The notes under the pieces: model-generated | Told to the model about the DNA's origin: nothing | Database searches by the model: none | What the model saw: the letters and a program-made list of their open reading frames with translations, nothing else | Shown: in pieces, positions 22,714-44,585 of the stretch | Layout: every line of letters begins with the position of its first letter | Position numbering within the stretch: the first letter of the stretch is position 1 | Source: Thermoplasmata archaeon | GTDB taxonomy: Archaea > Thermoplasmatota > Thermoplasmata > Halarchaeoplasmatales > Halarchaeoplasmataceae | NCBI GenBank assembly: GCA_003551675.1 | Contig: PUNG01000009.1 | Span: 937 to 64,936 of the forward strand | Reading direction: 5' to 3' | Length of the DNA: 64,000 bases | Made by a program: the position numbers and the translations under genes

Positions 22714-22787
22714 TGCCCGATCGGGGATTCGAACCCCGGTAAAAGGCTCCGCAAGCCTCTATGATATCCAAACTACATCAATCGGGC
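22714..22787 (-). tRNA. tRNA-Arg (anticodon GCG)
   Basis: The reverse complement reads GCCCGATTGATGTAGTTTGGATATCATAGAGGCTTGCGGAGCCTTTTACCGGGGTTCGAATCCCCGATCGGGCA. It has a TTCGAAT T-loop, a CGGGG/CCCCG T-stem, and an anticodon loop TTGCGGA. Confidence 0.85.
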
Positions 22788-43944: not shown

Positions 43945-44271
43945 TCAGAATAAGTGGTCTTCCTCCGGAGGGTATTTTTCTTCGTTCTTCTTCAATTTTT
44001 CTTCGACCGCCTTTCCAAGGTCTATGTCGGCTATATTCGAAAGAGCCAAAAGGTAGATCATCACATCGGCCATCTCCTCGCTCAACCTTTCGTCGTCCAC
44101 CGACGAGAGCGAGTCCTCCTTCCACTGGAAGAGTTCCAACAGTTCGGAAGCTTCTATGCATACGGATATGCTCAAGTCTTTAGGGGTATGATATCTTTTC
44201 CAATCACGTTGGTCCCTGAACTGCTCTACAGCCTTCTGTAATTCTTTTGTATCTACCATCTTCTCCTCCAT
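43945..44271 (-). CDS. MazG-like nucleotide pyrophosphohydrolase
   Basis: It has the EASELLE...EE(M)ADV(M)IY motifs. The first ATG is at 44271, because the track GTG at 44280 abuts the RNA gene. Confidence 0.65.
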   Translation of the reverse strand: MEEKMVDTKELQKAVEQFRDQRDWKRYHTPKDLSISVCIEASELLELFQWKEDSLSSVDDERLSEEMADVMIYLLALSNIADIDLGKAVEEKLKKNEEKYPPEEDHLF

Positions 44272-44282
44272 ATGGATCACAG

Positions 44283-44417
44283 CGGACTCGCCGGGAATCT
44301 CGCCCGATCAGGGAATACCAGACCGGTTTTCGAACCCGGGTTTAGGGCTCCGGAAGCCCCGATGATATCCTTTGCAGTCCGGCTCTTTATGAGACCGGAT
44401 AGCTACACCACGAGCCC
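44283..44417 (-). tRNA. candidate tRNA-Arg (anticodon CCG) interrupted by two non-canonical introns (~27 nt and ~32 nt)
   Basis: This is a GC-rich ~135-nt island in AT-rich DNA. The minus strand reads GGGCTCG...(D-stem GTGT/TCAT)...GGGGC-TTCCGGA-GCCCT (anticodon CCG)...CCGGG-TTCGAA[A]...CCCGG-CGAGTCC-G. The acceptor stem halves pair (GGGCTCG/CGAGTCC), but the element is about 60 nt too long for a mature tRNA. Confidence 0.5.
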
Positions 44418-44429
44418 ACAAGATGTATC

Positions 44430-44585
44430 TTACTTCTTATCTGTGAATTCCGTGTATCCGCATTTGCCGCAGGAGGTCCTATTTTCATGTTCTGCTAGAA
44501 AGACTCCTTCTCCACATTTGGGGCAGTTCCTTCTATTCCTTTTGAGTTCGCCGTTTTCGACCTCGTATATCTCAGATTTTTCCAT
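44430..44585 (-). CDS. rps27ae: ribosomal protein eS31 (S27ae) (51 aa; not in ORF track)
   Basis: Translation gives [51 protein letters not shown], with CPKCG...CGKCG. Confidence 0.8.

Follow-up and report, generated by a model that had tools for sequence, protein, structure and literature searches.

A predicted tRNA-Arg(CCG) gene with introns in the D-loop and T-loop in Candidatus Halarchaeoplasmatales (Thermoplasmatota)

Multi-intron tRNA genes are known from the Thermoproteales, other Crenarchaeota, Korarchaeum, Nanoarchaeum and ARMAN (Sugahara et al. 2007-2009, in PMC4033280, PMC4090602, PMC8450103). One listing names Crenarchaeota, N. equitans, M. kandleri, M. thermautotrophicus, Korarchaeum and ARMAN as their carriers (PMC4033280). 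Euryarchaeal tRNA genes, by one review, have a single canonical intron (PMC4090602), and only two Cluster-I euryarchaea are recorded with multi-intron tRNAs (PMC4090602, PMC4033280). The pre-tRNA-Glu(UUC) of the euryarchaeon Methanopyrus kandleri, a host with an (αβ)2 EndA, carries a canonical intron at 37/38 and a D-loop intron of HBh' form that lacks a proper bulge at its 3' splice site (PMC5829648). In the extreme halophile Candidatus Methanohalarchaeum thermophilum HMET1 (Methanonatronarchaeia), one- or two-intron pylT genes have been inferred from sequence (PMC9071458). A literature search found no paper on tRNA introns in Halarchaeoplasmatales. The gene described here is of a known kind in a lineage where it was not expected, as doubly interrupted tRNA genes had not been described in Thermoplasmatota before.

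The window, the 64,000-nucleotide stretch of DNA that was analysed, codes for a RIO kinase beside the tRNA gene whose nearest named homologues are those of Ca. Natronoplasma and Ca. Saliniplasma. An identical RIO kinase is coded on GCA_003553425.1 (contig PWEF01000025.1) and a second MAG, and also on one metagenome contig from soda-lake sediment and on several contigs from Logan assemblies. In the NCBI taxonomy, Ca. Natronoplasma and Ca. Halarchaeoplasma both belong to Candidatus Halarchaeoplasmatales, an order of Thermoplasmata within Thermoplasmatota. On these homologies the window genome is assigned to Candidatus Halarchaeoplasmatales within Thermoplasmatota, close to Ca. Natronoplasma. An earlier note on this DNA, made from the letters alone, had brought up DPANN, and the RIO kinase homologues together with the taxonomy refute DPANN as the host lineage.

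Gene structure and splice motifs

The element, a GC-rich island of 135 nt, is the minus strand of 44283-44417; in it three exons of 17, 43 and 14 nt alternate with two introns of 29 and 32 nt. From 44417 to 44283 the minus strand reads, segment by segment, GGGCUCGUGGUGUAGCU, AUCCGGUCUCAUAAAGAGCCGGACUGCAA, AGGAUAUCAUCGGGGCUUCCGGAGCCCUAAACCCGGGUUCGAA, AACCGGUCUGGUAUUCCCUGAUCGGGCGAGAU and UCCCGGCGAGUCCG. The predicted parts of the gene and its two neighbours are laid out as follows.

44430-44585, minus strand: rps27ae (51 aa; PF01599), the final gene of the Rpo7-Spt4-DUF359-S24e-S27ae block
44401-44417, minus strand: exon 1 (pre-tRNA nt 1-17), with GGGCUCG, U8 G9, D-stem GUGU and D-loop A14 G15 C16 U17
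44372-44400, minus strand: intron 1, 29 nt (nt 18-46), in the D-loop between tRNA positions 17 and 17a
44329-44371, minus strand: exon 2 (nt 47-89), from the 3' part of the D-loop to T-loop A59
44297-44328, minus strand: intron 2, 32 nt (nt 90-121), in the T-loop at 59/60
44283-44296, minus strand: exon 3 (nt 122-135), with U60, T-stem CCCGG, acceptor CGAGUCC and discriminator G73
43945-44259, minus strand: MazG-like pyrophosphohydrolase gene (104 aa as called; PF12643)

Exon 2 supplies A17a G18 G19 A20 U A21, the 3' strand of the D-stem (UCAU) and C26 on its D side, followed by the anticodon arm GGGGC-UUCCGGA-GCCCU, the variable loop AAAC, the T-stem strand CCGGG and T-loop residues U54 U55 C56 G57 A58 A59. 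The anticodon CCG occupies window positions 44353-44351, with G37 adjacent. The acceptor stem (44283-44296 with 44411-44417) contains a G3·U70 wobble. CCA is unencoded, and CUG comes next after G73.

These parts bear out most of what the earlier note had read as a tRNA-Arg(CCG) split by two non-canonical introns. Its acceptor halves GGGCTCG and CGAGTCC with G73 both lie on the minus strand of 44283-44417, its D-stem GTGT/TCAT is present and shares its type with that of the tRNA-Arg(GCG) located in the window at 22714-22787, and its anticodon arm GGGGC-TTCCGGA-GCCCT and T-arm CCGGG-TTCGAA...CCCGG are found in the sequence. The second insert, estimated at about 32 nt, is exactly 32 nt long (nt 90-121, window 44328-44297). 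The first, put at about 27 nt separating the D-arm from the anticodon stem, does exist but measures 29 nt and lies inside the D-loop, at 17/17a.

When the exons are joined in silico, ARAGORN reports a 74-nt tRNA-Arg(CCG) with a normal cloverleaf. The arms of the cloverleaf have 7, 4, 5 and 5 bp, and U8, A14, G18 G19, A21, U33, U54 U55 C56 and A58 are all there. In type, the D-loop AGCUAGGAUA, the 4-nt variable loop and the T-loop UUCGAAU agree with those of the window's tRNA-Arg(GCG). C35, G36 and A20 are arginine identity nucleotides in bacterial and yeast systems. The spliced product carries all three, A20 in a D-loop ending ...GGAUA, along with the 7-nt anticodon loop UUCCGGA, U33 and a purine at 37, as befits the CCG isoacceptor of tRNA-Arg.

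Elsewhere in the window, at 1000-2025 on the minus strand, lies an ORF for a 341-aa Trm5b-type tRNA (guanine37-N1)-methyltransferase (PDB 5yac, E = 6e-76). Such an enzyme would be expected to make m1G37 on tRNAs such as the G37-bearing tRNA-Arg(CCG).

The archaeal bulge-helix-bulge motif has a central 4-bp helix and bulges on opposite strands, with a helix strand 5' of each bulge, and each cut falls two nucleotides into a 3-nt bulge. Intron 1, which can be written A-UCCGG-U-CUC-AUAAA-GAG-CCGGA-CUGC-AA, forms its central helix through intron CUGC and exon GUAG (G12-C44, U13·G43, A14-U42, G15-C41). Its bulges are C16 U17/A18 and A45 A46/A47 (slashes mark the cuts), and its inner helix h' consists of UCCGG/CCGGA (U19-G23/C36-A40) plus CUC/GAG. 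The outer helix is absent, with only U11·G48 possible and G10 opposite the unpairable G49. By this predicted pairing, intron 1 is of the relaxed HBh' type.

Intron 2, A-A-CCGGUC-U-GG-UAUUC-CC-U-GAUCGG-G-CGAG-AU, pairs its CGAG with U54-G57 (U84·G119, U85-A118, C86-G117, G87-C116). The bulges are A88 A89/A90 and A120 U121/U122. The 5-bp T-stem serves as outer helix h, and the inner helix, C92-C97/G109-G114 (CCGGUC/GAUCGG), follows a 1x1 mismatch A91·G115. On these predicted pairs the motif is near-canonical (near-strict) hBHBh'. The formation of bulge-helix-bulge motifs at the junctions had been put forward as a check on the reading. Such motifs can be formed at both junctions, splicing at them yields a cloverleaf, and in 14 orthologues the pairing of the two central helices is 100%.

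As a 139-nt region, the element folds into a four-armed structure with the D and T arms extended (MFE -62.2 kcal/mol, z = -3.1 against shuffles). Enforcing the splicing motifs, so that the fold is splicing-competent, leaves each of the 19 precursors known from the orthologue search described below 0.9-5.4 kcal/mol from its MFE.

The two introns begin alike: their first decamers, AUCCGGUCUC (intron 1, 44391-44400) and AACCGGUCUG (intron 2, 44319-44328), are identical at 8/10 positions. Over the set of orthologues, intron 1 resembles intron 2 only weakly and not consistently (pairwise z from -1.4 to 4.1). A shared origin of the two introns through intron transposition is neither supported nor excluded.

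Standard scanners overlook the gene, as the earlier note had anticipated. On the unspliced window, ARAGORN calls only tRNA-Gly(GCC) and tRNA-Arg(GCG) and makes no call at the element. Rfam at the gathering threshold finds the same two tRNAs in the window and leaves the element unmatched; at E<=10, a search of 401 nt around the element returns no tRNA match. The matches that do appear at E<=10 (snoRNA ZL116, mir-4677 and RsmY) score far under their gathering scores and were set aside as noise. A miss by ARAGORN and Rfam on the raw sequence is to be expected from two non-canonical introns.

An unbiased scan for splice sites across the window was used to gauge how readily such a gene would arise by chance. 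Every bulge-helix-bulge-like site on both strands was excised, alone (~10,900 sites) and in two-site combinations (~65,000), and the products were passed to ARAGORN. The sole new junction-spanning tRNA comes from this locus, with junctions 17/47 (or 16/48) and 89/122, and the reversed-sequence control of the same scan gives 0 calls. A looser scan of 24 Halarchaeoplasmatales loci (1.29 million records) finds matches at the orthologous locus only, against 0 matches in 1.28 million control records. The sequence pattern of the element is far beyond chance. Neither scan reveals any other hidden intron-bearing tRNA in the window or in the 24 Halarchaeoplasmatales loci.

A separate observation concerns locus L031 (349-510, plus strand) of an unrelated Thermoplasmatota MAG. 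It begins like the 5' half of a tRNA-Pro (GGGCCCGTGGGGTAGCTTGGCCATCCTTGGG...), is uncalled by ARAGORN and is followed 160 nt downstream by a normal tRNA-Pro(TGG) whose first 30 nt are identical. A truncated duplicate could account for it, as could a further interrupted tRNA.

Orthologues with and without introns

A RIO-profile scan of species-representative genomes yields four loci with the same two-intron gene after rps27ae, namely those of Ca. Saliniplasma, two Thermoplasmata MAGs and Ca. Halarchaeoplasma halalkaliphilum. A metagenome scan with the 42-nt middle exon yields 43 contigs. Together, Candidatus Halarchaeoplasmatales genomes and soda-lake or hypersaline metagenomes provide 19 distinct two-intron sequences, the window included, and both introns sit at identical sites in 19/19. 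Intron 1 ranges from 28 to 32 nt in this set and intron 2 from 29 to 33 nt. The exons of the 19 are nearly invariant and the intron interiors differ widely.

Covariation was counted on the splicing-competent structure in 14 orthologues. Standard pairs fill 97.6% of cells, and 11 pairs are altered on both sides; 0/500 shuffles attain such values. Covariation scores 0.283, compared with 0.153±0.013 when shuffled; when the partners are slid by 1-3 columns, the best score is 0.081. Compensatory changes are seen at 5/5 pairs of the intron 1 inner helix and 5/6 pairs of the intron 2 inner helix, and the central helices of both introns remain fully paired. A covariance model built from the 18 other orthologues, with the window sequence left out, matches the element over its full length at 144.7 bits (E = 3e-34), far from the score below noise that the earlier note had named as a possible outcome. 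The two ordinary tRNAs of the window also align to this model, with deletions in place of the intron columns, and score 35-36 bits.

These comparisons bear on whether the element is instead a tRNA pseudogene in decay, left over from an old tRNA-Arg gene that two insertions broke up and deprived of its function. The silence of standard tRNA finders and Rfam would suit such a relic, and so would the rarity of CGG, which accounts for 53 of about 19,500 codons in the window and could in principle be read by tRNA-Arg(UCG) too. However, decay is difficult to reconcile with exons that stay near-invariant in 19 orthologues while the neighbouring proteins at the same two-intron loci have diverged to 51-82% identity. 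The intron interiors vary freely, yet their helices are kept, and the 4-bp helices and 3-nt bulges at the splice sites are 100% preserved. No single-intron or degraded variant occurs among the 43 metagenome contigs. A pseudogene is therefore very improbable.

Twenty distinct intronless tRNA-Arg(CCG) genes of 74 nt were recovered by the same metagenome scan from other euryarchaeal lineages. Where the contigs reach far enough, these genes directly follow rps27ae in the Rpo7-Spt4-DUF359-S24e-S27ae block. They are identical to the in-silico spliced product at 58-66 of 74 positions (78-89%), and Rfam assigns the tRNA model (RF00005) 50-59 bits on each of eight intronless contigs. S27ae identity to the window's protein is 49-68% at intronless loci versus 64-82% at two-intron loci. 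The presence of intronless genes in other lineages makes the introns a derived or retained feature of one order. Within that order, both introns very probably go back to the ancestor of those Candidatus Halarchaeoplasmatales that were sampled, and have persisted from then on.

The intronless genes also settle where the exons end. Their D-loop is AGCYWGGAUA, so that ...GUAGC(YW)GGAUA... runs uninterrupted over the predicted intron 1 junction; their T-loop is UUCGAAU, and GGGTTCGAATCCCGG and ...GGGUUCGAAUCCCGG... are continuous over the predicted intron 2 junction. Contiguity over both junctions fixes the exon junctions and favours 17/47 over 16/48 for intron 1. The 16/48 register, which also gives a tRNA call, was rejected: it shortens the D-loop to 8 nt, against 10 nt in all intronless orthologues and in the window's tRNA-Arg(GCG), and A18·C41 would have to pair where the inner helix starts.

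The same alignment weighs on a reading in which the inserts are never removed and form permanent expansion hairpins of an unspliced tRNA-like RNA with a non-translational role. Both inserts do form stable, conserved hairpins, and the whole RNA folds better than its shuffles (z = -3.1). Yet pairing of the inserts with U54-G57 and G12-G15 would destroy the elbow of a tRNA-like fold, and the geometry is exactly that of an EndA substrate, with 4-bp helices and cuts two nucleotides into 3-nt bulges. Excision at those points reproduces the intronless same-locus orthologues to the nucleotide. Permanent hairpins thus merit very little credence. Splicing in silico, the intronless orthologues, covariation and the covariance model all agree with the core reading of the earlier note, a tRNA-Arg(CCG) with two non-canonical introns. 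The element is very probably a functional tRNA-Arg(CCG) gene whose 135-nt precursor, judged by its sequence and that of its orthologues, would be spliced to a 74-nt tRNA.

Gene order in the window is Rpo7-Spt4-DUF359-S24e-S27ae-tRNA-MazG-RIO-KH. The 5' end of the tRNA lies 12 nt downstream of the rps27ae stop codon, and mazG starts 24 nt downstream of the tRNA 3' end, an adjacency specific to the window's species. A position downstream of rps27ae is shared by tRNA-Arg(CCG) in every lineage examined, several euryarchaeal lineages beyond the window's order included. In the window (44418-44432) and in the upstream regions of 18 orthologues, the tRNA starts 0-45 nt past the rps27ae stop wherever that stop can be located; at L019 it begins immediately after the rps27ae TAA. 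With so short a gap, an independent promoter would need to sit within the rps27ae coding sequence, and co-transcription with the ribosomal-protein operon is likely.

Linkage of the rps27ae-tRNA block to mazG-RIO-KH is variable (L010-L015 versus the window, L016-L019, L052, L058, L064 and L076). In the closest relatives by RIO (L010-L015, 67-82% identity), mazG has no rps27ae block upstream; the tRNA is consequently absent from those loci, which are uninformative for it. In more distant relatives, the gap between tRNA and mazG is 0.5-1.3 kb, or mazG lies elsewhere.

In several independent Logan assemblies, contigs of the window's species terminate within the tRNA; the break falls in the anticodon stem-loop (GCTTCCGGAGCC) and is reached from either side (L004-L006 and L009 at their 5' ends, L050 and L051 at their 3' ends). 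The breaks could be an assembly artefact at a near-palindromic hairpin or strain variation.

CGG decoding and the G3·U70 pair

The pair G3·U70 is the main (classical) alanine identity element. It is present in all 19 two-intron sequences (14/14 of those aligned), and the intronless orthologues mostly have G3-C70, with G·U in L082 and A-U in L055. Taken alone, this distribution might suggest that the spliced tRNA is charged wholly or partly with alanine via G3·U70, so that CGG is read as alanine or ambiguously.

The placement of CGG codons in the window points to arginine. In the VYFSPRLATER motif of Trm5b, one CGG encodes the invariant Arg R174; a second Trm5b CGG is at a position that is Arg/Lys. 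In topoisomerase VI-B, CGG stands at two invariant Arg residues (R220 and R377) and at one position that is Lys in homologues, and in RIO it is found at codon 16, aligned with Lys/Arg. No CGG codon stands opposite alanine in the Trm5b, topoisomerase VI-B or RIO alignments. Since CGG falls on conserved arginine and never on alanine in these proteins, it is very probably read as arginine, and a reassignment of CGG to alanine via G3·U70 was rejected on the strength of the invariant Arg residues. The tRNA, for its part, retains A20, C35, G36 and a G73 discriminator rather than A73. Full or partial alanine charging is accordingly the most improbable of the alternatives weighed here.

Processing and comparison with known systems

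The precursor would probably be transcribed by read-through from the rps27ae operon or from a promoter inside the 3' end of rps27ae. In the predicted fold, which covariation supports, four nucleotides from the 3'-terminal part of each intron pair with an exon (CUGC with G12-G15; CGAG with U54-G57), each pairing producing a 4-bp helix with 3-nt bulges, the substrate of the archaeal splicing endonuclease EndA. By analogy with the established archaeal pathway, EndA would cut two nucleotides into each bulge, at 17/17a and 59/60, and an RtcB-type ligase would join the three exons. RNase P and RNase Z would trim the ends, after which CCA would be added. The presumed product is a 74-nt tRNA with A20, C35, G36 and G37 that reads CGG as arginine.

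As a relaxed HBh' intron, intron 1 implies that the EndA of this lineage must tolerate a 3' splice site unclosed by an outer helix. A relaxed-specificity endonuclease, which the earlier note had proposed for this genome, is plausible for intron 1 only. The clade containing Thermoplasmata is reported to encode only α'2-type EndA (PMC5829648), and the α'2 EndA of Archaeoglobus fulgidus removes an HBh' D-loop intron poorly in vitro (PMC5829648). It is conceivable, if somewhat unlikely, that the Halarchaeoplasmatales EndA independently gained the ability to process relaxed HBh' D-loop introns within this clade of reportedly α'2-only EndA. If so, the order-wide two-intron tRNA-Arg(CCG) would be the sign of EndA specificity having widened convergently, and so far unnoticed, in a lineage other than TACK, DPANN and Methanopyrus. 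A phmmer search (E<=10) of ORFs of at least 60 aa in the window and the loci covered by this search (0.67 Mb in all), with M. jannaschii EndA as the query (sequence verified against PDB 1a79), returned no EndA homologue.

The locus extends the multi-intron tRNA phenomenon to Thermoplasmatota. With ARAGORN or Rfam, the CGG decoder tRNA-Arg(CCG) seems to be missing from the MAGs of a whole order, and an overlooked tRNA-Arg(CCG) affects estimates of tRNA complement and completeness. The HBh' D-loop intron yields a testable prediction on the lineage's endonuclease, given the poor performance of the A. fulgidus enzyme on such introns, and the fixed positions of both introns in 19/19 orthologues offer a clean presence/absence marker for the order.

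In comparison with known systems, the gene resembles those of Crenarchaeota, Korarchaeum, Nanoarchaeum and ARMAN in having short introns (11-129 nt in those lineages) outside 37/38 with bulge-helix-bulge or relaxed motifs. Two or three introns per gene are possible there, and ordinary scanners miss such genes, as here. Those lineages have (αβ)2 or ε2 endonucleases with specificity loops and many disrupted tRNAs, whereas the present host belongs to a Thermoplasmata order and shows a single disrupted tRNA over the roughly 64 kb plus roughly 150 kb that were examined; the two remaining tRNAs of the window are intronless. The M. kandleri pre-tRNA-Glu(UUC) is likewise euryarchaeal, with two introns of which one is an HBh' intron in the D-loop (PMC5829648). 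It differs in its (αβ)2 EndA and in its canonical second intron at 37/38, in contrast to the D-loop and T-loop introns and uninterrupted anticodon loop seen here. HMET1 also lives in similar brines and its one- or two-intron pylT was likewise recognised from sequence, but that gene encodes tRNA Pyl in another lineage, with unrelated intron positions and without a reported order-wide comparison (PMC9071458). The intronless tRNA-Arg(CCG) genes (L053, L055, L061, L071, L072, L082, L086, L091 and others) share the locus and the 74-nt length and differ from the window's gene in lacking introns and in mostly having G3-C70 instead of G3·U70.
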